Source: an archaeon (GTDB lineage: Archaea > Asgardarchaeota > Heimdallarchaeia > Heimdallarchaeales > Kariarchaeaceae). From it: a stretch of 24,000 nucleotides of DNA. The stretch lies in the NCBI GenBank assembly GCA_024280435.1, contig JAJRQD010000018.1:3868-27867 (forward strand), written 5' to 3'. Each line of letters opens with the position of its first letter. Positions within the stretch are counted from its first letter, which is position 1. Under the pieces are notes generated by a model. It did not search any database, was not told the origin of the DNA, and saw only the letters and a program-made list of their open reading frames with translations. Positions 1,578-24,000 of the stretch are shown here, piece after piece. The translations under genes were made by a program, and so were the position numbers.

Positions 1578-3062
1578 ATGTCAACACCTGAAACATCACC
1601 GATCAGATTAATTATGTTCACATCAAAAGATTGCGTGTATTGTCCACCAGTTGAATCTATTGTACGAGAGGTAATTGGCAGTGGAATGCAGGAAATTGTT
1701 CATGTATCCACTATTGATATCGATGTTGATAAAGAGTCTGCATCTCAATATCATATCAATGCATTGCCAACACTTGTGATCAATGATGAAATAGTACTAG
1801 AAGGTGGTATGGAGGATGAAGCTGTTAGAGACCTCCTATGGTCAACATTGCTCAATTATGCATTCACATCAGGTGAAACAGAGGAATTAATGAAATCGGC
1901 ACTTTTAACTATTACTATGAATTCTATTGATTCTTTGAATAATACATCGATATTACGTCCATCAGTTGGGGATTATGCACATATTAGCACATATCAGTTG
2001 AATTTACTAAGTCTATACAGTCTTGATCCATTGATACCTCATTTTCTTTATCGTGCAGGTTACAAATTAGGAATGTATGGTATAATGCACCACATCTTAT
2101 TAACATTGAATCCAAGCCTTGGTAGAACACCTAAAAGAAAGATGAGATTTTCCAAACTTGGTAAAGCACTTGAATTATACTTCTCTAATAGAGAGATTTA
2201 TTCCACCAAGATTGCACATGGGGCACATGTGGTAGAGCAAACTGAGAATACAATTCATCTGAAAGTATCTGAACTGGCTTCATCATCAATTGGGATAGAT
2301 GTTGGTGAACCAATGTGTGGATTCACAGCAGGACAGTTAGCAGGTGTGACAGTAGCAGTTATGGGTACTGACGCTAGTTGTGAGGAACAGATTTGTCTGG
2401 CCAATGGAGGCGATTTTTGTTTATTCAAAATATCAATTGATCAAGCTTTTAAGAAACCAACATTACCACCCCTTGAAGACAAAGATGAGAGAACTATAAG
2501 AAAGCAAAATTTCTATGAAGTAATTCATGAAACTACTAAAATTATTGAAGATAGTTTGTTGATGCGTAAAGCTCAAAGACATAATGCAGGTGATTTTATT
2601 CATATATCTGTAATACAGCCGATAATTATTACACTCAAACTATTAGATAGATTATCAGGAGTTTTATTGTATTCCGGCGGTAGAGAATTAGGTATTTTTG
2701 GTTCAGGTAAGAATTTACTTTACAGATTAGTTGAAGAAAAAGGAAGTAATGGTATTGTATCACTTGAAGAAGGGATTAGTCTGTTATATGATTATCTAAC
2801 TCATCCTACCAGTCATTTAAGTCGAGATTATGGTAGAGTAAGATCAATAAAAATCGATGAGAAAACATATCATATTGAAATTGAGGAGAACCTCTATGTA
2901 TCGGGTATGAATGTAACAAATTTAGATAAAACATTCTGTGATTTTCAAGCTGGATTTTTTGCAGGTAGATTACAAATTTTGATAGGAACTGAGCCACAGG
3001 TAAAAGAGATCAAATGTCAGGGAAATGGAAACGATATCTGTATATTTGAAGTAAAAATCTGA
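1578..3062 (+). CDS. Thioredoxin/glutaredoxin-fold domain fused to two V4R (4-vinyl reductase-like) domains
   Basis: The N-terminus has CxxC ('DCVYCPP') plus 'ALPTLVINDE', a Trx-fold signature. Each of two halves ends in a V4R Cys pattern: 'CGFTAGQLAGV...EEQICLANGGDFCLFKI' and 'CDFQAGFFAGR...EIKCQGNGNDICIFEV'. Confidence 0.7.
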   Translation: MSTPETSPIRLIMFTSKDCVYCPPVESIVREVIGSGMQEIVHVSTIDIDVDKESASQYHINALPTLVINDEIVLEGGMEDEAVRDLLWSTLLNYAFTSGETEELMKSALLTITMNSIDSLNNTSILRPSVGDYAHISTYQLNLLSLYSLDPLIPHFLYRAGYKLGMYGIMHHILLTLNPSLGRTPKRKMRFSKLGKALELYFSNREIYSTKIAHGAHVVEQTENTIHLKVSELASSSIGIDVGEPMCGFTAGQLAGVTVAVMGTDASCEEQICLANGGDFCLFKISIDQAFKKPTLPPLEDKDERTIRKQNFYEVIHETTKIIEDSLLMRKAQRHNAGDFIHISVIQPIIITLKLLDRLSGVLLYSGGRELGIFGSGKNLLYRLVEEKGSNGIVSLEEGISLLYDYLTHPTSHLSRDYGRVRSIKIDEKTYHIEIEENLYVSGMNVTNLDKTFCDFQAGFFAGRLQILIGTEPQVKEIKCQGNGNDICIFEVKI

Positions 3063-3639
3063 ATAAATAATCATTGCCAAGCTAAAATTTTACATTCAAA
3101 TTGATTTTAGATACCGATAAGTTACTTACTAATATATATAAGTATTTAGCGCCAAATAATCAAGGCCACCATAATTTATGTTTACAGACAGATATGCAAC
3201 TATATAGAGATTAAACTGGTTTAAACTATAAAAAAATATTTTAAATAAATTTTTTAATTCTATATTTTATATAATACAAAAAAATACAATGATAATTGCT
3301 AACTAACGAAAATAGTATCTGAACCAATAATTCATCAAATTACACAAATAATACTATTCTAAGCCAATAAACAACTAATCTGGTACATAATAATACACAA
3401 ATTTATGATTTGATAACTTGTATTACAATATAATAACATTAAATTATTTGAGTACCTATCAAATTCAAGAGGAAAATGTAAATTATGGATATAAGTGGTA
3501 TCAAATCAAATATCACAATTTTTCAATATAGTATACAATTTCGTTTCTATTTCAATAAACTATTCTCGCGATTAAACCTTAATACGACATATTCTTTTTA
3601 ATACTTAGTGAGAATAAGTACAATATAGTCGAAATTTTC

Positions 3640-4215
3640 TTGGAGGAAAAATGTATTACAAGCGAAAGACGTAAAATATTCAAAATTGTGCTCTTAGGCG
3701 ATGGTGCCGTTGGAAAGACTGCACTGCGACACAGATATCTGGGGGACGGCTTCCAGCAATCATATTCAATGACCATAGGGGCTGATTTCGCTGTGAAGAG
3801 GGTCAATCTTGATGGTGAAGAGGTAGTTGCTCAGATCTGGGATCTTGCGGGTCAGATTAGATTTCAATCTGTGCGTGAGGTATATTATCAGGGGGCCACA
3901 GGAGCGTTACTAGTATTTGATATAACAAGATCACCAACTTTTGAAAATATACCCAATTGGATAACAGAGCTTTTAGATAATAATAAAAATAAGATTGTGC
4001 CAATGGTGCTTATAGGAAATAAAAGTGACCTAAGAAATACAGCAGATGGTGCGATTACATATGATGCAGGATTAGAGTATGCACAGAATTTATCTGCATG
4101 GAGCCACTTTGAGATACCTTATATTGAGACTTCAGCACTATCTGGAGATAATGTGGAATCTGGATTTGCGGTTTTACTTAGAAATATAGAAAATTTTCTA
4201 GATTCTTCAGGATAA
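3640..4215 (+). CDS. Rab-like small GTPase (Ras superfamily)
   Basis: G1 'GDGAVGKT', switch I 'TIGADF' (RabF1-like), G3 'WDLAGQ', 'YYQGATGALLVFDIT' (RabF4/5-like), G4 'GNKSDL', G5 'ETSAL'. TTG start; there is no in-frame ATG before G1. No C-terminal Cys. Confidence 0.85.
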   Translation: MEEKCITSERRKIFKIVLLGDGAVGKTALRHRYLGDGFQQSYSMTIGADFAVKRVNLDGEEVVAQIWDLAGQIRFQSVREVYYQGATGALLVFDITRSPTFENIPNWITELLDNNKNKIVPMVLIGNKSDLRNTADGAITYDAGLEYAQNLSAWSHFEIPYIETSALSGDNVESGFAVLLRNIENFLDSSG

Positions 4216-4295: not shown

Positions 4296-4661
4296 ATGTC
4301 TAGAAGACGCCATAGATCAGTAAATGATATGGATGCATTACTACCAGATGAATTGATTGAAACATCAAGCGGATCTACTGTGAATGAATTGAAAGTAATT
4401 GTGGATCAATTAGAAGAAGAACTCAAAGATGTTATTGGGAAATATGAAGAAAAAATTGCAGATCTAACAGAAAGATTAGAATCTATTGAATCAGATTTCA
4501 AGCAAGTGATTGAAGGTTTAAAAAATGCGCAAGGCGGTGTTGCATCTACACCATCACCCGCTAGCCCAGCAACAGCAGGACCACCATCAACAGGGCCTGT
4601 AAGCCCAGCAGGACCTTCAGGACCCGTAACAGGTGGTCCAAAACCACCAAAACTAGGCTAA
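4296..4661 (+). CDS. Hypothetical coiled-coil protein with a proline-rich C-terminal tail
   Basis: 121 aa with an ATG start. Heptad-like acidic/Leu-Ile segment 'VNELKVIVDQLEEELKDVIGKYEEKIADLTERLESIESDFKQVIEGL', followed by 'STPSPASPATAGPPSTGPVSPAGPSGPVTGGPKPPKLG'. The local GC spike (about 4530-4660) is explained by Pro/Ala/Gly codons. Confidence 0.6.
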   Translation: MSRRRHRSVNDMDALLPDELIETSSGSTVNELKVIVDQLEEELKDVIGKYEEKIADLTERLESIESDFKQVIEGLKNAQGGVASTPSPASPATAGPPSTGPVSPAGPSGPVTGGPKPPKLG

Positions 4662-5404: not shown

Positions 5405-6127
5405 ATGATCGATAGTGATATAATAATTGCCGAGGAATACAGGTGGGTTTTTGATAATGAGCCTACTTTTCATTTGAATGGTAATGTTTTGAAGGGTAAG
5501 GTTGGAAGAACACCGGATGGAGATAGTATTGTGATCTCAATTACGGTACCTGAATTTTACCCGATTATTAAACCAGAAATAAAAGTAGTAACAAAGATTT
5601 CACATCCAGATATTGATGAGAATATGAATTTATCATTGCAGATGATGGATGAATGGGAACCTAGTTACAGATTGAGAGATATAATTGCGAATGCACGACG
5701 TCTTTTTATTAAATCAAAAAGATCAATTAGGTCAATTAAACCATCATTACCAAAGAGATCAATACAGGTTGAAGCATCATCTAGACTTGAAGATGAGATA
5801 TTAAGATTACAAAAACAGATTACTGAGTTGAATAAACAGATCACAGATGTGAAAACAGATAAACTTAAACAGGCTGGGATACAGCAATCTGCTGCATTTA
5901 AAGTTTCTGCATTTTCGGATTTAACTGCTCAGTTAAATGCTTTAGAAGATTTAATTGAGTTATTGGAAATTAAATTTGAAGATGCAGATATAGATCAAAC
6001 TGACTTTTTCAGATTATACAGGAAGTATATTAAGGAAAAATATGTTTGCACACAAAAATTATCAAAAATTGAGGTAGATAAAAATGACGTATCAAAGAAG
6101 AACGCAAAAAGACCAATTAGACATTGA
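5405..6127 (+). CDS. vps23: ESCRT-I Vps23/Tsg101-like protein: UBC-fold UEV domain (no catalytic Cys), coiled-coil stalk and steadiness-box-like C-terminus
   Basis: UBC-fold pattern 'PEFYPIIKPEIKVVTKISHPDIDENMNLSLQMMDEWEP' with Ser where E2 enzymes carry the active Cys. Coiled coil 'LEDEILRLQKQITELNKQITDVK'. The C-terminal 'DADIDQTDFFRLYRKYIKEKYVCTQKLSKI' resembles the Tsg101/Vps23 steadiness box. Confidence 0.75.
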   Translation: MIDSDIIIAEEYRWVFDNEPTFHLNGNVLKGKVGRTPDGDSIVISITVPEFYPIIKPEIKVVTKISHPDIDENMNLSLQMMDEWEPSYRLRDIIANARRLFIKSKRSIRSIKPSLPKRSIQVEASSRLEDEILRLQKQITELNKQITDVKTDKLKQAGIQQSAAFKVSAFSDLTAQLNALEDLIELLEIKFEDADIDQTDFFRLYRKYIKEKYVCTQKLSKIEVDKNDVSKKNAKRPIRH

Positions 6128-6698
6128 AGCAGACCTTTTTTCTGCTATTGCTACAATGGACCAGTTATCGAGATATTTCGATAAGGGACTAGTAGAAGGG
6201 ACTTTATACAAGAGACAACTAAAATCATGCATATCAGATGTATTTAAATCTAGAATTCAGCTTGAGAAACTTGGATTCAATATTGGAGAATTTATCAGTA
6301 GAGAAGATCTAGAGACAAAGTATCCTGAAGGATTGAGAAGACTAAATCTTGTAGAGGGAAGTGATGGTGAATCACTTGATTTTGAGCAAATTAAAGATTT
6401 ACCAAGAAAAACAGCTGATTATGTGGCAAATGCAATTGAGTTGATAGATCTATTAAAGTTAAAAACAGTAGCCAGAGTAGAGTATATTGTGCCATTGCTT
6501 GATGAGTTAATTAGTATTACTGGAAACTTCCCTAAACTTGGAAAAGAGCATTGGATCGGTACTGAGATAGAAGGTTGGCGAGATGAGTTGAAAGATGAAA
6601 AACCAAGTATGACACTTGGAGAGGAACGATGTGAAAAACTTGAATTCGATGCAGTCAGATGGCTGAATGAGTTTAGAAGAAATTTAAAGGAGATCTAG
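6084..6698 (+). CDS. vps28: ESCRT-I subunit Vps28
   Basis: The N-terminal helix 'EADLFSAIATMDQLSRYFDKGLVEGTLYKRQLKSCISDVFKS' and the C-terminal domain 'ANAIELIDLLKLKTVARVEYIVPLLDELI...GWRDELKD...LEFDAVRWLNEFRRNL' track eukaryotic Vps28 end to end. ATG 6084 overlaps the upstream gene by 44 nt. An alternative ATG at 6156 would remove conserved residues. Confidence 0.85.
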   Translation: MTYQRRTQKDQLDIEADLFSAIATMDQLSRYFDKGLVEGTLYKRQLKSCISDVFKSRIQLEKLGFNIGEFISREDLETKYPEGLRRLNLVEGSDGESLDFEQIKDLPRKTADYVANAIELIDLLKLKTVARVEYIVPLLDELISITGNFPKLGKEHWIGTEIEGWRDELKDEKPSMTLGEERCEKLEFDAVRWLNEFRRNLKEI

Positions 6699-6702
6699 AA
6701 AA

Positions 6703-7425
6703 ATGGGTCTAAGAGACATCGAAAGAAAAATACGTGCAAATAGTGCATATCAGAGAAAAGAAGCAGAACTGCTTTTAGATGAATTAGATCAGATGATTGA
6801 GAATGTCCAGACCTTAAAAAAACAACTCAAGAAATTTGAGAAGAAACATGGTAAAGAAATTACAGATAACAAGGATTACTACATGAAAATATCTGAATTA
6901 CGGGATAATTTGGGATTACCTGAAGAATTAGGAGTTTATGATTGGAAAGATAGCCCATCTTTCAGTGATAAATTTGGTAAAAGTGATTACTATGATCAAC
7001 TTGCACATGAAATACTTGAACTTGGTAAATTCGTCATTGCAGAGACAGGTGGATTGATATCAGTTGCAGAGATAGTTTTGAAAATAAATAAAAAACGACC
7101 TGGAAAATTAGTACCACCAAGAGATATAATTAAATCGTTAGAAAAATTAATCAAAGATAAATTGATCTCACCTCTACGTAAGCTCAAATCAGGAGTGCTT
7201 ATCGCAGAATTTGTCAATATTGAGATGTCTAAAGATCAAGAGGCGGTATTTAATCTGGCATCAAGACATGGTTTCTTAACCAAAGAATCTTTGATTATTC
7301 AACTCGGTTGGAATTCAGAAAGGGCCTCTAATATACTTGAAGAGTTAGTTACCAATGGCCTTGCATTGAAAGATGAATCATATCATGAGGGTACTAAGTA
7401 TTGGTTCCCAGGTCTTGGACAGTAA
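6703..7425 (+). CDS. vps22: ESCRT-II subunit Vps22/SNF8 (EAP30 domain)
   Basis: N-terminal helix 'LKKQLKKFEKKHGKEI', then 'DYYDQLAHEILELG...ETGGLISVAEI', then a second winged helix 'LGWNSERASNILEELVTNGLALKDES...KYWFPGL'. This is the EAP30/Vps22 pattern. The start is 4 nt after the Vps28 stop. Confidence 0.85.
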   Translation: MGLRDIERKIRANSAYQRKEAELLLDELDQMIENVQTLKKQLKKFEKKHGKEITDNKDYYMKISELRDNLGLPEELGVYDWKDSPSFSDKFGKSDYYDQLAHEILELGKFVIAETGGLISVAEIVLKINKKRPGKLVPPRDIIKSLEKLIKDKLISPLRKLKSGVLIAEFVNIEMSKDQEAVFNLASRHGFLTKESLIIQLGWNSERASNILEELVTNGLALKDESYHEGTKYWFPGLGQ

Positions 7426-7428
7426 AAT

Positions 7429-8097
7429 CTAAATTATTAATTTGAATGAATCTTTGGTGGAACCTACCCATTTTGCCCTACCCTCTTCCACTAATGTATC
7501 AAAAATCTCTACAAATTCAGAAATTGGTAATGTACTCCAATCCTCACCCATATTTTGTAGTTCATAAAAGGTCAACACCTCTGCCGCATATCCTGTATCA
7601 AATAAATATGCAACAATAATTTCTTTCCATTGTTCATTAGTTTTATAATATACCCTTACTATGATATGATGGTCATCAATCCATTTTGCCAATCCATTCT
7701 CAACCATATCATTAACAATAATATCGAGTTGAGGTTTTGTCAGTTGTTTTCTAATTTTATTATTATTAAATGGGAATTGATCTTGTAGTTCAATAATACT
7801 GATAATATGTAATTTGAAATGTGATGAATAATCAATAATTAATGTTTTCCAAGATTCTTTCCATGATTGAAGATGACCTGCATGAGTTGGTTGTATGAAC
7901 ATCCACGGTTTATTAACCCAACCAGGCAAGTTATTTATGAATTCTTCCAATTTATTGACAACTTTTTGTTCTGATACAACCTCTATCTTCTGTTTATTTA
8001 CTTGAATTGGTTCTGAAGGCTTTGTTATTGTATCTTTTTTATCAACAACTTTTGATATATCTTTTTTTTCTTTTCTAGGACGCTCCTTGACAGACAT
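7429..8097 (-). CDS. vps25: ESCRT-II subunit Vps25, with a Lys-rich N-terminal extension
   Basis: 'WMFIQPTHAGHLQSWKESWKTLII', 'FPFNNNKIRKQL', 'AKWIDDHH..VRVYYKTNEQWKEII', 'VLTFYEL' and 'EEGRAKWVG' follow the tandem winged-helix motif order of Vps25. The first ~50 aa are Lys/Glu-rich and look disordered. Confidence 0.85.
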   Translation of the reverse strand: MSVKERPRKEKKDISKVVDKKDTITKPSEPIQVNKQKIEVVSEQKVVNKLEEFINNLPGWVNKPWMFIQPTHAGHLQSWKESWKTLIIDYSSHFKLHIISIIELQDQFPFNNNKIRKQLTKPQLDIIVNDMVENGLAKWIDDHHIIVRVYYKTNEQWKEIIVAYLFDTGYAAEVLTFYELQNMGEDWSTLPISEFVEIFDTLVEEGRAKWVGSTKDSFKLII

Positions 8098-11176: not shown

Positions 11177-11251
11177 TGGGCCACGCCAGATTTGAACTGG
11201 CGACCTCACGGTTATCAGCCGTGCGCTCTAACCAAGCTGAGCTAGTAGCCC
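11177..11251 (-). tRNA. tRNA-Ile (anticodon GAU), no encoded CCA
   Basis: The reverse complement folds as GGGCTAC-TA-GCTC-AGCTTGGTTA-GAGC-G-CACGG-CTGATAA-CCGTG-AGGTC-GCCAG-TTCAAAT-CTGGC-GTGGCCC-A. All four stems pair (one G-U), the anticodon loop is CT-GAT-AA, and a T-run follows directly. Confidence 0.9.
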
Positions 11252-13532: not shown

Positions 13533-13925
13533 TTGAACAGCTTATTTAATACTCGATACAATAATTTTTTAGTGAATACATTCAATAATTATAATTACTA
13601 TAAATTATTACTGATAATTAGTAGTTTAACACCCTTGAAGACTAAAATACTGCTTATACTGTCACATATATCACCTAAACAATTAACTGCAACTGAATTA
13701 ACTGCCCTGCTTGGTTATTCAAAAAGCTCAAGGATAATCTACAGAGGAGTTCTAGATGAATTGGAGAAAGATCAATTAATAAAATTAGTAAAAATATCAA
13801 AGAAAAAGTATTCAATTCAAATAAACATTAATCATCCAATGATGAATATATTAAATGAGTTAAGCTATGAATTTGGTGAGGACTATTCTCAAAGACTACT
13901 AGATATTTTGGAGGATAGAGAATGA
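13533..13925 (+). CDS. Winged helix-turn-helix transcriptional regulator (ArsR/MarR-like)
   Basis: 'LKTKILLILSHISPKQLTATELTALLGYSKSSRIIYRGVLDELEKDQLIKLVK' has the HTH-plus-wing layout. There is no in-frame ATG before the HTH, so the start is non-ATG and uncertain (TTG 13533 or GTG 13569). Confidence 0.5.
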   Translation: MNSLFNTRYNNFLVNTFNNYNYYKLLLIISSLTPLKTKILLILSHISPKQLTATELTALLGYSKSSRIIYRGVLDELEKDQLIKLVKISKKKYSIQININHPMMNILNELSYEFGEDYSQRLLDILEDRE

Positions 13926-14470
13926 ACAGAATTAATATTAAATTATTAACCATATTTTTTATTATTATAACTATAATCAGCTATAATTTATTGTCATCAT
14001 TGCCAAATAAGGAAATTAATACTGAAGATCAATCTATTAATGAAGTAAGTGAATTGGAAGGTATTGATATTTCACCCACACCAAAGAGATCAATGCATAA
14101 TTTTGTGAGTTCAGTTATAATATCATCAGTTATCATTACATTATTAGCAATCTACTACCAATTTTTTACATTGAACTCTGAGATTAGGAATTACATATTA
14201 TCAGCATTAACACTTGCAGGCTTTAAAAAAACAATGATGAAATTTCCCTCATTGATTGTTAGTGATGAGATACAATTGAAAATAACTGGAATGAAAAAAA
14301 TAAAAATTATTATTACAGGTCCTTTTTATGATAATTATCAAGAATTTGGATTACAAAAAAATATTAACAAAAAACTATCTATTTTATCAAGTAGAATAAT
14401 ATCAGATATAGAATTGTTACCATTAAAATTATTGCTATTCAAAGAGTATATACTTGAAAATAACAAATAA
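13922..14470 (+). CDS. Hypothetical membrane protein (2 predicted TM helices)
   Basis: ATGA start/stop overlap with the wHTH gene. Hydrophobic spans are 'LLTIFFIIITIISYNLL' and 'FVSSVIISSVIITLLAIYY'. I recognise no family motif. Confidence 0.5.
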   Translation: MNRINIKLLTIFFIIITIISYNLLSSLPNKEINTEDQSINEVSELEGIDISPTPKRSMHNFVSSVIISSVIITLLAIYYQFFTLNSEIRNYILSALTLAGFKKTMMKFPSLIVSDEIQLKITGMKKIKIIITGPFYDNYQEFGLQKNINKKLSILSSRIISDIELLPLKLLLFKEYILENNK

Positions 14471-14566: not shown

Positions 14567-15100
14567 GTGAGTTACAAAGCGACATTCAAAATCTTACTTT
14601 TGGGTAACGGGGGCGTAGGTAAGACAGCAGTGGTACAGAGATTTGTTCATGGCAAATTTAAAGAGTCATATCAAATGACAATTGGCATGGAGCCCTATAG
14701 TCGCTATGAAACGATAAATGGAGTGAAAGTTGTATATTCCCTTTGGGATATTGCAGGACAAGAAAAATTCCGTGCAATGCGTCAGATATTTTTCCAGGGT
14801 GCTCGTGGTACGATAATTGTATTTGATCTAACACGAAGAGAATCTTTTGAAAAAATTGAAGAATGGATGGAGGAAAGTAAAGCAGAGGCCAATGATCAAT
14901 TATTTTTATTAATAGGAAATAAGAATGATTTGGAAGATGAAAGAGAGATTTCACTTGCGGAAGCTAATAATTTAGCAAATGAATTAGGTTTTATTGATTA
15001 TATAGAAAGTTCTGCAAAAACAGGAATGAATGTTGAAGCAGCTTTTACATTGCTTGGATCCAAATTACTAGAAAAGTATGCGCCTAAGAACAGAAAATAA
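14567..15100 (+). CDS. Rab-like small GTPase (Ras superfamily), second copy
   Basis: G1 'GNGGVGKT', switch I 'TIGMEP', G3 'WDIAGQEKF', 'FFQGARGTIIVFDLT', G4 'GNKNDL', G5 'SSAKTG'. GTG start. The C-terminus 'EKYAPKNRK' has no Cys. Confidence 0.85.
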   Translation: MSYKATFKILLLGNGGVGKTAVVQRFVHGKFKESYQMTIGMEPYSRYETINGVKVVYSLWDIAGQEKFRAMRQIFFQGARGTIIVFDLTRRESFEKIEEWMEESKAEANDQLFLLIGNKNDLEDEREISLAEANNLANELGFIDYIESSAKTGMNVEAAFTLLGSKLLEKYAPKNRK

Positions 15101-21181: not shown

Positions 21182-24000
21182 ATGTATTCAAAATCAATTA
21201 TTACTGAAAATTATGATCCAAACATAAACTATCAATTTAGCTTTATATGGGAAAATTATCATCCAGGTGAAACATTAATCAGCTTCATCTCTGAATATTT
21301 AATGCCAAAGGTGGAAAAAAAAGTATTGGAAATTTTAACCTATGAAAAATATTTGATTCTTTTACATTGGGATAATAAAATACAATTAGGATATATCGTG
21401 ATAATTTCTTTTGAAGTTGAAAAGTATCTTGATGATTGTATTAATTTTGCAAAATCCTTGTGGGATTTAATTTTAACCCCAATAGAATCATATAAAAAAA
21501 ATGAAAATAAAGAATATGATTATTCTAATTCCAGTATGAACTATATTTTTGAAATAGATTGGATAAAAAGATCTTTAATGGGAGGTAAAATAGAATTTAC
21601 CATCGAGAAAAATCGTGAAAAATTTGTATCTCAATTTTCTAATTTCTTATATGTATTTAGATGGTCAGTGTATTCATTAGACTATGCTAATTTTGAACAA
21701 AACAGAGTAATTTTCCATTTTCATAATCAATTGATTGATCAAAAATATTTCACATTTGAAGAATATTTTTTGAAGATAACTGATTTTTCTGATAAACAAT
21801 TTCAATCTTTGATTGATAAAATAATTATATTATCATTTCAATTCGAAACAAAGAAAAGAATGGAAACATTTCTAAATAATTTCCATGTCATAAACAAATT
21901 AGTAGATACAGAAATCACAAAGATTGATAGAATTAGAATAATTAAAAGTAATATAGAAATGATGATAGCTATTGATAAAAAATATATAGTTAATAATCTA
22001 ACCAATATAGTTTTAAGTTTGCCAGATCAGCAAAATAATGAGATATTTATTGATGAATTGTTAGCTATTTCAGATATTTTAGAAAAAATTGGAATTCAAG
22101 AAAATGAAGACATAATAAAATTAATTGATGGTACAATTCTTGACATAGTTATTAATAGCAATAACATTGATAAAAATGAATATATAATGAAATTGACACA
22201 CAAGTCTTTAAACTGGGGTTTAGATCATTTTATAGGTTATTTAAATTTAATAATTAATATTTTCAGCAAAGATAATATAAAGCTATTATTACAAATAGCA
22301 GGTGAATTTGAGAAAGAGCTTATAATTACAAATAAAGGTATTTCATGCCTAGTTCATATAAATGAAAATTGTGGTGAATTTTCAAAAGCAATTGAATTAA
22401 GATTATTAGCCATTAACCTCAATAAAGATGAAACATCAAAATTTTATGATACAATTAATAGTTTAATTGAAATAGCAAGCTACAAAGAAATTAGTTTGCA
22501 AATTTTTGAAAGTGAAATAATCAAATATTTTGGATATATTTTAACAAATTTTCCAGATAAAGAGATATTAGAAATATATTTTAATGAGTTGATCACTAAA
22601 TTTTTAGATAATAATCATACTGAAATTGTAATATCATTTATAAGATGGATACAAAATAATATTGAGAATATTGAAAATAACGAAAGGTTAAATTTATTTA
22701 AAATACTCAATTCAACAATACTAAAATATCCTGAACTCAATAAAATTCAATTAAAATTTCAATTATTATACTTCAATCAATATTTAGATCAGTATTCAAA
22801 AAGTGATGATCAGAATTTATTAGAAAGTGCAGATAGATTATTAAAAAATATATTTAACCAAGCCGATCCTTTAGACAGTAAATACAAAGAAACCCTAACT
22901 ATAATAACACAATCACTTGTGCTATCTGCTTCTAAATATCAAGAATGGGAATTAATTCAAGAAGCCATTCATCGTTTTAGTTTATTAATGAATGATAAAA
23001 AATACTTTCAAAAAGCAATTACTAAAATTTATATCAATGCTGGGAAGTCTAGAAATCAAATCAAAATAATAGACAAAGATAAAAAAGATATTGGATTAAA
23101 AATATTTGATGAAACTATCAGATTGATTTCTAACAATCCAAATCAAATTAATTTAGCATTTTCTTTTCTTCCTGTTGCAAAAGAATTAGCGTTAAAATCA
23201 AATGATTTCAATAGATTCATGATTTATTCAACATTAGAAATGAATTTAAATAAAATTAATGGAAAACAATGGATAGACAGTTTAATTGAAGCCATATTAA
23301 ACCTGATAAATAAAAATTCAATAGATTATGCTCGACAACTATTTGAAGCAGGATTAAAAATTGATATGAATGAAAAGGAAGAATATGAATTACTGAGTAG
23401 ACAACTAGAATTAGCTGAATTAGAATTAGATATCGTTAATGTAGAAGAGATATCAATAAAAAGAAAAAGATTAATTGAATTAGCCGTAAACAATGAAGGA
23501 ATTGCAACTGAAGATGAAATAATAAACTCATTCCGAAATGGAATATCTGAGATAATGTCAAAGGGTAATACTCATTACTTACACTCCTTTTTACTAAAAG
23601 CAATCAAATTTGGAGTTGATAATAAAATAAATGATCTTACAGATTTTTATAATGCCCTTAAAGATAGTTTTAATGCAGTAATGAGTGATTATAAGGACAA
23701 TCATGATGAAAGTTCCTATTCAGAAATAATATTTATTTTGAGGGAATTATATAATATTTATCAACATAATGATAAAAATATTATATTCGAATATGCAACT
23801 ATTGTACTCAAAACAAATAATTTATTGTATAATAAAGATATGAATTTATCTAATTTAATAAAAAATTTATTTATTATAAAAGAGTTTACCAATTATTTTA
23901 GCACTCCAGACAGTATAGTTGAAGATGTTAAATTGGAAGAGTACATAAATACTGTCAAAGATATGTTTAATTTAGTTTCCAAAGAAAAAAATGTCTCAAC
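21182..24000 (+). CDS. Large (more than 939 aa) alpha-helical repeat protein with an N-terminal alpha/beta domain; 3' end beyond the window; absent from the supplied ORF track
   Basis: I read the frame codon by codon from ATG 21182 to base 24000 and found no stop in 939 codons, in DNA where stops should occur every 10-20 codons by chance. The protein begins MYSKSIITENYDPNINYQFSFIWENYHPGETLISFISEYL... and is Asn/Lys/Ile/Leu/Glu-rich. After about residue 110 it is a long run of amphipathic helices. I recognise no P-loop, metal or catalytic motif. Confidence 0.8.
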   Translation, partial: MYSKSIITENYDPNINYQFSFIWENYHPGETLISFISEYLMPKVEKKVLEILTYEKYLILLHWDNKIQLGYIVIISFEVEKYLDDCINFAKSLWDLILTPIESYKKNENKEYDYSNSSMNYIFEIDWIKRSLMGGKIEFTIEKNREKFVSQFSNFLYVFRWSVYSLDYANFEQNRVIFHFHNQLIDQKYFTFEEYFLKITDFSDKQFQSLIDKIIILSFQFETKKRMETFLNNFHVINKLVDTEITKIDRIRIIKSNIEMMIAIDKKYIVNNLTNIVLSLPDQQNNEIFIDELLAISDILEKIGIQENEDIIKLIDGTILDIVINSNNIDKNEYIMKLTHKSLNWGLDHFIGYLNLIINIFSKDNIKLLLQIAGEFEKELIITNKGISCLVHINENCGEFSKAIELRLLAINLNKDETSKFYDTINSLIEIASYKEISLQIFESEIIKYFGYILTNFPDKEILEIYFNELITKFLDNNHTEIVISFIRWIQNNIENIENNERLNLFKILNSTILKYPELNKIQLKFQLLYFNQYLDQYSKSDDQNLLESADRLLKNIFNQADPLDSKYKETLTIITQSLVLSASKYQEWELIQEAIHRFSLLMNDKKYFQKAITKIYINAGKSRNQIKIIDKDKKDIGLKIFDETIRLISNNPNQINLAFSFLPVAKELALKSNDFNRFMIYSTLEMNLNKINGKQWIDSLIEAILNLINKNSIDYARQLFEAGLKIDMNEKEEYELLSRQLELAELELDIVNVEEISIKRKRLIELAVNNEGIATEDEIINSFRNGISEIMSKGNTHYLHSFLLKAIKFGVDNKINDLTDFYNALKDSFNAVMSDYKDNHDESSYSEIIFILRELYNIYQHNDKNIIFEYATIVLKTNNLLYNKDMNLSNLIKNLFIIKEFTNYFSTPDSIVEDVKLEEYINTVKDMFNLVSKEKNVS

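Follow-up and report, generated by a model that had tools for sequence, protein, structure and literature searches.

Domains of the V4R type occur in several described proteins. The closest of these by mechanism to the protein treated here is MsvR, the methanogen-specific V4R regulator, together with the thioredoxin system of Methanosarcina acetivorans. In MaMsvR, the conserved V4R cysteines C206, C232 and C240 govern redox-dependent DNA binding (PMC3729527); they change conformation with the redox state, and a thioredoxin, together with NADPH and thioredoxin reductase, returns the oxidised regulator to its reduced form (Sheehan 2015, cited in PMC7278568). Here we describe a gene from an Asgard archaeon of the family Kariarchaeaceae, located in a stretch of 24,000 nucleotides (contig JAJRQD010000018.1, positions 3,868 to 27,867; hereafter the window), whose product joins a thioredoxin (Trx) domain and two V4R domains in one chain and is called Trx-V4R-V4R below. 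The window is a low-GC Asgard segment (22-36%).

Besides MsvR, V4R-type domains serve as sensor domains in the bacterial phenol sensors PoxR, MopR and DmpR, in which they are coupled to AAA+ and DNA-binding domains and dimerise by intertwined N-terminal segments (residues 18-45 in DmpR; PMC7264223). The zinc ligands of DmpR are Cys151, Glu172, Cys177 and Cys185, beside the ligand pocket (PMC7264223). Zinc is bound by PoxR too, and by Thor-TRAPPC3 (7YH2/7YH3), a homodimer resembling TRAPPC3/C6, while mouse TRAPPC3 has a hydrogen bond in place of the zinc site (PMC10933270). Dimerisation of V4R and TRAPPC3 domains runs through N-terminal helices; palmitate is bound by TRAPPC3 and phenols by PoxR, MopR and DmpR, and according to Tran et al. 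the Asgard TRAPP/V4R proteins most likely bind ligands (all PMC10933270). The gene described here and the predicted parts of its product are the following.

1578-3062, plus strand: complete Trx-V4R-V4R gene, with ATG at 1578 and a stop codon ending at 3062 (494 aa; from the list of open reading frames, ORFs)
1599-1835, plus strand: thioredoxin-fold domain (~residues 8-86), from Thioredoxin_3, 1fo5 and the conserved CxxC and P64
1632-1643, plus strand: CVYC active site
1767-1769, plus strand: cis-Pro P64
1869-2438, plus strand: first V4R/Bet3-fold half (~residues 98-287), from AlphaFold2 (AF2), Foldseek and profile matches
2316-2420, plus strand: Cys-Glu-Cys-Cys site of half 1 (C247, E270, C273, C281)
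2490-3059, plus strand: second V4R/Bet3-fold half (~residues 305-494), from AF2, Foldseek, hhalign and profile matches
2937-3041, plus strand: Cys-Glu-Cys-Cys site of half 2 (C454, E477, C480, C488)

The parsing into Trx, V4R and V4R proposed by the initial annotation is right, with both Thioredoxin_3 and V4R scoring above their Pfam cut-offs. A word-indexed search returned 34 full-length homologues of the 494-aa protein (35-83% identity), all with Trx and V4R, and residue conservation was taken from an alignment of 31 full-length homologues (34-83% identity). Thioredoxin_3 matches residues 16-84 with 28.1 bits (cut-off 24.8), and the nearest solved structure to the N-terminal ~85 residues is the stand-alone M. 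jannaschii thioredoxin MJ0307 (1fo5; E 4e-8 from the single sequence and 7e-13 from the family profile). The active site reads C19-V-Y-C22, in which C22, like the cis-Pro P64, is invariant among the 31 homologues, and C19 is absent solely from one N-terminally truncated entry. Judged from its residues, the domain has the Trx fold, the CxxC and the cis-Pro loop that define the redox-active Trx superfamily. It shares the CxxC, the cis-Pro and a compact ~80-residue Trx fold with the MJ0307-type thioredoxins (1FO5, 1NHO), the best match to residues 7-85, but these are stand-alone proteins of 85 aa with CPHC, whereas the fused domain has CVYC-PP. The MJ0307-family equivalog TIGR00411 (NCBIfam) gives 50.3 bits against a cut-off of 92.75, which is below membership; the domain is related to MJ0307 thioredoxins, yet it is no equivalog.

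The remainder of the protein is a duplication. Pfam V4R (PF02830) matches it in two stretches with 68.4 bits (cut-off 31), so the protein belongs to this family, as do 34 of 34 homologues. The two halves are 27% identical to each other (BLASTP, E 1e-16), and when aligned as profiles by hhalign they match over 188 columns with a probability of 99.9% and an E-value of 4e-33, far beyond chance. Since the alignment spans 188 columns, the duplicated unit is a full module of ~190 residues and extends beyond the 60-residue Pfam V4R core. The Cys-rich motif that had been noticed at the end of each half is real as well: C247, E270, C273 and C281 in the first half and C454, E477, C480 and C488 in the second are invariant in the 31 sequences, and the spacing is Cys-x22-Glu-x2-Cys-x7-Cys in each. 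The most conserved N-terminal motif, R-x3-G-D-x2-H-x4-Q, is likewise invariant or nearly so in each half, and strong conservation outside the zinc site concerns R127, G131, D132, H135, Q140 and H409-P410.

To which V4R-related proteins the halves belong depends on whether sequence or fold is considered. Searched as profiles against the PDB sequences, they match MJ1460, PoxR, MopR and DmpR alone. Half 1 finds MJ1460 with E 2e-6 and PoxR/MopR at the Cys motif, while half 2 finds MJ1460 with E 2e-4 and also PoxR. No Bet3, TRAPPC or Thor-TRAPPC3 chain appears at E<=10 in these searches, and Pfam TRAPP (PF04051) has no match at E<=0.1 in the 494-aa protein. Membership of the halves in the Bet3 family, with no TRAPP/Bet3 signal in either the Pfam or the PDB profile searches, was therefore rejected. 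The pattern Cys...Glu-x2-Cys-x7-Cys aligns exactly with PoxR and MJ1460, as expected of a putative V4R metal site. Because the profiles match V4R proteins and never Bet3, Thor-TRAPPC3 or Pfam TRAPP, the halves are classed as prokaryotic-type V4R domains, predicted to be Bet3-like in fold only.

For the fold, AF2 models were made for each half separately, from sub-alignments of 25 sequences each. The predicted local distance difference test (pLDDT) score is 75.6 and the predicted template-modelling score (pTM) 0.73 for half 1, and 75.5 and 0.72 for half 2. In both models the secondary structure consists of helices followed by beta-beta-alpha-beta-beta (E-E-H-E-E), and each half takes up, at moderate model confidence, the 4-helix, 4-strand two-layer fold of the V4R/Bet3 superfamily. 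The top Foldseek matches of both halves in the PDB come exclusively from this superfamily, with probability 1.0 to MopR, DmpR, PoxR, MJ1460, Thor-TRAPPC3 and eukaryotic TRAPPC3/Bet3, and with template-modelling (TM) scores of 0.5-0.7 over 160-190 columns to V4R and TRAPPC3 structures. Half 1 is matched to MopR 5kbg (E 8e-7), DmpR 6iy8 and Naegleria fowleri TRAPPC3 6aq3 (E 3e-6), and further to PoxR, yeast Bet3 in the TRAPPIII-Ypt1 complex (7kmt_F), MJ1460 and Thor-TRAPPC3 7yh3. Half 2 is matched to 6aq3 (E 3e-5), MJ1460 2oso, Thor-TRAPPC3 7yh3, PoxR, and Drosophila and yeast Bet3. The expectation that the halves would model as V4R/Bet3-like folds thus held, but the Bet3 affinity read into them did not: their profiles find only prokaryotic V4R proteins, and they keep the zinc site that is lost in mouse TRAPPC3 (PMC10933270). 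Judged from the models, the halves are structurally equidistant from the bacterial phenol sensors and TRAPPC3, with no preference for Bet3. The only part of low confidence in the models of the lone halves is the region of the R-x3-G-D-x2-H-x4-Q motif, which fits an interface between the halves.

Compared with the described systems, the protein combines features that occur separately elsewhere. The three V4R cysteines of each half have the same spacing as those of MsvR (26 and 8), and the NCBIfam MsvR family (NF053755) is the second-best NCBIfam match of the protein, through the V4R part (profile positions 177-236). It is no member of that family, as the score is 50.3 bits against 220 and no HTH (helix-turn-helix) family matches in the 494-aa protein. 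MsvR binds DNA through an HTH domain at its N-terminus, has one V4R domain only and is served by thioredoxin in trans, whereas the protein here is without a DNA-binding domain, has two V4R domains and carries its thioredoxin in cis. Structurally, half 1 is matched best by the sensor domains of PoxR, MopR and DmpR (E 8e-7 to 1e-5, TM ~0.55), and their Cys-Glu-Cys-Cys zinc site aligns with that of the halves, but they are homodimers rather than tandems, lack a thioredoxin and share 12-19% identity. Thor-TRAPPC3 and eukaryotic TRAPPC3/Bet3 have the two-layer fold of the halves, with 4 helices and a 4-stranded sheet; the zinc site of Thor-TRAPPC3 consists of four Cys and eukaryotic TRAPPC3 is without one, in contrast to the Cys-Glu-Cys-Cys of the halves. 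TRAPPC3/Bet3 proteins are single-domain subunits that assemble with longin subunits, while in the present protein the tandem is covalent and a thioredoxin precedes it. MJ1460 (2OSO/2OSD), a stand-alone archaeal V4R protein, is the best sequence-profile match of both halves and a structural match too, but it consists of a single domain, lacks a thioredoxin and, in the alignment, does not keep the first Cys of the site.

We ran an exhaustive profile search of 1.84 billion representatives, and it turned out that 40 clusters at 50% identity matched at E<=1e-30, all of them full-length family members or their fragments, among them a 530-580-aa variant in which the linker between Trx and V4R is longer. 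All members that bear a name are from Asgard archaea: Heimdallarchaeota, Kariarchaeaceae/Kariarchaeota, Hodarchaeales/Hodarchaeota, Jordarchaeales and Wukongarchaeum, besides entries labelled "Promethearchaeota" or "Asgard group" and one metagenome-assembled genome labelled Thorarchaeota, with such taxonomy labels taken as deposited. Both complete Heimdallarchaeum genomes encode the protein. The architecture was not found in methanogens in this survey; a common occurrence in non-Asgard methanogens without GTPase linkage would, according to the initial annotation, have favoured a sensor role. Distant matches (E ~1e-21) include tandem V4R proteins without thioredoxin, for instance a zinc-ribbon+V4R+V4R protein of Altiarchaeales. 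Because such Trx-less tandems occur in non-Asgard archaea, the V4R tandem itself is neither an Asgard invention nor one linked to trafficking; the Asgard-specific feature is the thioredoxin fusion. Database names are generic ("V4R domain-containing protein", "predicted hydrocarbon binding protein/glutaredoxin"). The fusion had been flagged as an architecture not known from description, and we likewise found no publication on Trx-V4R-V4R in a literature search on V4R with thioredoxin, Asgard and TRAPP, and on MsvR, which covered few subscription journals. Since every member keeps the fusion across clades with differing gene neighbourhoods, the core function resides in the fusion.

We tentatively favour, at a little short of an even chance, a role as a thiol/zinc redox or ligand sensor with a built-in thioredoxin, which in one subclade may feed into a GTPase module. 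The gene product would be a soluble, Asgard-specific sensor protein, whose two halves may pack together as a single-chain version of the V4R/TRAPPC3 homodimer, each presumably binding zinc as its homologues do. Oxidants would attack the zinc thiolates, or a hydrophobic ligand would fill the V4R cavities, and the conformation would shift. The tethered thioredoxin would then re-reduce the V4R cysteines and reset the switch, a task for which MsvR uses the free thioredoxin system. As thioredoxin re-reduces MsvR in the account cited above, the fusion would unite in one chain two proteins known to interact; by the logic of domain fusion, a Trx domain fused to two V4R domains is what would be expected if thioredoxin acts on V4R thiols. 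DNA-binding and enzymatic output domains are absent, so the output would have to be a protein-protein contact. In the subclade of the window protein, the readout might pass through the conserved neighbours, a Rab-like GTPase and a coiled-coil companion, as the most likely partners, and the GTPase module would thereby come under redox or ligand control. The fallback of the initial annotation, a redox or small-molecule sensor, fits the evidence better than a role in trafficking.

The same domains could also serve as a hydrophobic small-molecule binder, carrier or thioredoxin-dependent reductase. A lipid, quinone, tetrapyrrole or aromatic compound would then sit in the V4R cavities, to be reduced or protected by the fused thioredoxin, and the gene neighbours would be irrelevant. 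The ligands of other V4R-fold proteins (phenols, palmitate) and the view that the Asgard ones most likely bind ligands (PMC10933270) speak for it, as do the top Foldseek matches, which are ligand-bound sensor domains, the strong conservation outside the zinc site listed above, and the gene context, which differs among clades. The phenol contacts of DmpR, His100 and Trp128, could not be mapped onto the protein, however, and neither the strict conservation of the CxxC thioredoxin nor the conserved gene triad of the subclade would be accounted for. To our knowledge, no V4R domain has an established catalytic activity. On balance we regard this alternative as unlikely.

The subclade partners of the favoured sensor lie directly downstream of the gene, and the features of this block are as follows.

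3063-3639, no strand assigned: spacer between the V4R gene and the GTPase gene, 577 bp, AT-rich (22% GC)
3580-3606, in the spacer: promoter-like motif TAATACGACATATTCTTTTTAATACTT, which recurs upstream of orthologous GTPases
3640-4215, plus strand: Rab-like small GTPase, 191 aa from a TTG start (Pfam Ras E 2e-48)
4296-4661, plus strand: 121-aa coiled-coil/Pro-rich protein, third member of the conserved block, from alignments of homologues

That the next gene on the same strand (3640) encodes a Rab-like GTPase, as had been read from the sequence, was confirmed by the Pfam match and by its best PDB relatives, which are the Thorarchaeota Rab 7ezb (E 3e-42), Rab11, Ypt7, Sec4 and Rab1. It shows the Ras-superfamily G motifs GDGAVGKT, WDLAGQ and GNKSD, and with Rab proteins as its closest relatives it is counted to the Rab family. 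A C-terminal Cys for prenylation is absent from this GTPase (which ends ...NIENFLDSSG) and from its orthologues. With the called TTG start, the N-terminus MEEKCITSERRK... is 6-7 residues longer than in four aligned orthologues (M-SxRRKIFK); translation may in fact begin further downstream, or at a non-canonical codon.

The coiled-coil protein belongs to a family of 100-127 aa whose members begin with a basic stretch (MSRRRxK), share a DLLPEE motif, contain ~60 aa of coiled coil and close with a Pro-rich tail that reads GGPKPPKL(G) at its end. It starts 7-80 bp behind the GTPase wherever the contig continues, with copies at, for example, L002:10638-11021, L005:8735-9067, L006:8540-8866, L007:7402-7770 and L008:5565-5870 (L numbers denote the loci compared). 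Only 21 homologues were found in 5.8 billion proteins. No Pfam family matches it beyond sub-threshold coiled-coil noise, and its tail shows no P(S/T)AP late-domain motif. It may be the true partner of the GTPase, an effector or adaptor.

The conservation of the neighbourhood was followed in the contexts of ten homologues and in 43 loci from species-representative genomes, where neighbours were located by tblastn and all flanking ORFs were clustered; since the genome scan worked with two peptide patterns, divergent members, for example those of Jordarchaeales, escaped it. The subclade comprises the 13 distinct loci in which the Trx-V4R-V4R protein reaches an identity of at least 47% to that of the window. 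In 10 of these 13 Heimdallarchaeial loci an orthologous GTPase lies directly downstream of the Trx-V4R-V4R gene, and as the GTPase orthologues are 66-91% identical, the GTPase is more conserved than the V4R protein. Of the exceptions, L007 has lost the GTPase and kept the coiled-coil protein, while L001 and L018 have neither. In the subclade, whose outer flanks change, no other neighbour is nearly as conserved as the GTPase and the coiled-coil protein; next come PCNA/Gins (5 of 13 loci) and the genes of the endosomal sorting complexes required for transport (ESCRT; 3 of 13). When the search was anchored on the coiled-coil protein instead, 3 of 3 loci showed the order Trx-V4R-V4R, GTPase, coiled-coil protein, two of them new (L055, L056).

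Beyond the subclade the picture is different. GTPase adjacency was seen in 0 of ~31 loci of a clade with ~38% identity (Heimdallarchaeum, AB_125 and relatives) and in none of the Jord-, Hod- and Wukongarchaeal loci, which makes ~35 non-subclade loci in all. The linkage to a GTPase suggested by the initial annotation therefore stands for 10 of the 13 loci of one subclade and fails elsewhere; a family-wide linkage was rejected, being limited to the clade at least 47% identical to the window protein. Nor was an alternative partner gene found for the whole family, as the Jord, Hod and Wukong loci differ again. Loci of the ~38% clade have a 160-aa protein with 4-5 predicted transmembrane segments downstream of the Trx-V4R-V4R gene (27 of 31 loci), on the same strand after a gap of 50-80 bp (L003:9707-10186, L043:7613-8095, L036:7635-8120 and 24 further loci). 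Because those genomes are closely related, this adjacency may be plain synteny. The Heimdallarchaeum-type clade also has a thermosome gene upstream and glycine-cleavage genes downstream.

Retention of the GTPase/coiled-coil unit beside the V4R gene suggests functional coupling in this subclade, while it is no evidence that the whole family works on a GTPase. Two further explanations bear on this coupling. One of them takes the GTPase adjacency for inherited synteny without function and the protein for a general redox housekeeping factor, and so overlaps with the sensor reading minus its output step. The arrangement of the genes is in keeping with this. The spacer holds no ORF of at least 40 aa and no Rfam family, so a hidden gene or RNA in its 577 bp was rejected, and because this AT-rich gap without ORF separates them, the V4R gene and the GTPase are neighbours with no evident operon. 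The motif TACGA.A.TCTTTTTAA stands upstream of the GTPase in the window, L008, L011 and L013, 35-110 bp before the start, and another sub-branch (L005, L016, L017) has a different conserved TATA-like motif, TTGAGTAAcATATAAGAAC, upstream of the GTPase. These conserved motifs are probably promoter elements, and since they precede the GTPase, the GTPase/coiled-coil pair would be its own transcription unit. With spacers of 130-700 bp across the subclade loci as well, an operon of the V4R gene and the GTPase is unlikely. The loss of the GTPase from L007 and of the whole block from L001 and L018, and the restriction of the linkage to one subclade, point the same way as the long spacer and separate motif. 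Against mere synteny, the surroundings were reshuffled in the subclade while the GTPase (10 of 13) and the coiled-coil protein stayed, the next best neighbour reaching 5 of 13, and such retention is usually taken as a sign of functional coupling. We consider synteny without function unlikely.

The other explanation follows the idea with which the locus was first singled out. The V4R-V4R tandem would act as a Bet3-type dimer, redox-gated by the thioredoxin, and serve as guanine nucleotide exchange factor (GEF), regulator or effector of the neighbouring GTPase, as TRAPP does. Foldseek matches that include Bet3 chains from the TRAPPIII-Ypt1 and TRAPPII-Ypt32 complexes are in its favour, and so is the Rab-like character of the neighbour, whose best eukaryotic matches are Rab11, Rab1 and Ypt7. 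The triad order has moreover outlasted 47-75% divergence and a change of flanks in 10 of 13 loci; it is found in L055 and L056 too, and in three loci the block abuts an ESCRT-I/II cluster. However, the ~35 loci of other clades, two complete Heimdallarchaeum genomes included, are without an adjacent GTPase; the halves are prokaryotic V4R by sequence rather than Bet3; Trx-less tandem V4R proteins exist in non-Asgard archaea such as Altiarchaeales; and the GTPase apparently has its own promoter. In TRAPP it is the longin heterodimer Bet5/Trs23 that contacts the Rab, with Bet3-type subunits flanking it (PMC10933270), and neither the block nor the scanned neighbours in the window include a gene with a longin domain. 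Three points thus count against the GEF idea: this missing longin partner, the prokaryotic V4R character and the lack of linkage throughout most of the family. A TRAPP-like GEF role is conceivable but lacks support, and the trafficking interpretation is speculative. In its full form, in which a single-chain redox-gated Bet3-like pseudo-dimer regulates the Rab-like GTPase (as GEF, as a holder like a guanine nucleotide dissociation inhibitor, or as effector) together with the coiled-coil protein and beside ESCRT-I/II genes, we hold it to be quite improbable, and we give the TRAPP-like regulator as such the same low standing.

The sensor with a built-in thioredoxin thus remains our preferred reading, and several points weigh against it in turn. 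Zinc binding, redox sensitivity and the pseudo-dimer are all proposed by analogy with homologues, and the AF2 models of the halves are of moderate confidence only (pLDDT ~75). The zinc site of PoxR, MopR and DmpR is described just as a coordination site by the phenol pocket, with no redox role reported for it (PMC7264223); the MsvR analogy may therefore not transfer. As for the output, a long spacer and a promoter-like motif of its own set the GTPase apart, and 3 of the 13 subclade loci, like all other clades, are without the linkage to it.

The gene order around the block in the window is as follows.

Before the block: PCNA fragment, Gins51, S27e (minus strand)
The block: Trx-V4R-V4R, spacer, GTPase, coiled-coil protein
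After the block: TFIIE-alpha, UEV/Vps23-like, Vps28, EAP30 (Vps22/36-like), Vps25

The ESCRT-I/II cluster (UEV/Vps23-like, Vps28, EAP30, Vps25) occupies 5405-8097 of the window. Vps4 and two Snf7/ESCRT-III genes flank Vps25 in L007 and L008 and are missing at this position in the window, where Vps25 is directly followed by an RsmB-type methyltransferase; the difference points to a rearrangement. L007 and L008, the closest loci, also have a gene for a 127-aa protein with a weak Roadblock/LC7 (Robl_LC7) match (L007:1478-1861 and L008:61-444, both minus strand), located 3-4 kb upstream of Trx-V4R-V4R, beyond TFIIS, PCNA and Gins. The window start cuts off the equivalent position. Roadblock proteins are known partners of small GTPases. 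A second Ras/Rab-like GTPase, which shares 40% identity with the first, is encoded at 14567-15100 (plus strand; 177 aa; Pfam Ras E 5e-50), and beside it the unannotated ORFs 13533-13925 and 13922-14470 are without Pfam match. An AT-rich ORF (~23% GC) of more than 939 codons at 21182-24000 (plus strand), also without Pfam match, runs off the window end and may encode a giant lineage-specific protein. A tRNA-Ile (GAT) at 11177-11251 (minus strand) is the sole Rfam/ARAGORN match in the window.

In conclusion, our search found no description of the Trx+V4R+V4R architecture or of the triad that it forms with a Rab-like GTPase and a coiled-coil protein. V4R/TRAPPC3-fold proteins and Rab-like GTPases both count as eukaryote-like proteins of Asgard archaea, and no GTPase has yet been matched to its regulator; in MK-D1 the GTPase genes generally lie outside operons with roadblock, longin and TRAPPC3 genes, which makes such matching hard (Tran et al. 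2024; PMC10933270). The locus is a rare conserved three-gene neighbourhood that joins a TRAPPC3-fold protein, a Rab-like GTPase and a coiled-coil protein and that abuts ESCRT-I/II genes in some genomes, and since the proteins are small and soluble, the three-gene idea is directly testable. If the regulator explanation were true, a TRAPP-fold protein and a Rab-like GTPase would for the first time be functionally paired in a prokaryote, in what might be an evolutionary precursor of TRAPP-Rab signalling; a link between this fold and GTPase signalling before eukaryotes is testable and unproven. The GTPase aside, the fusion gives genomic support to the idea of the V4R Cys/zinc site as a redox switch addressed by thioredoxin, as proposed for MsvR, and Trx-V4R-V4R is a conserved marker protein, specific to the lineage of Heimdallarchaeia and related Asgard classes.

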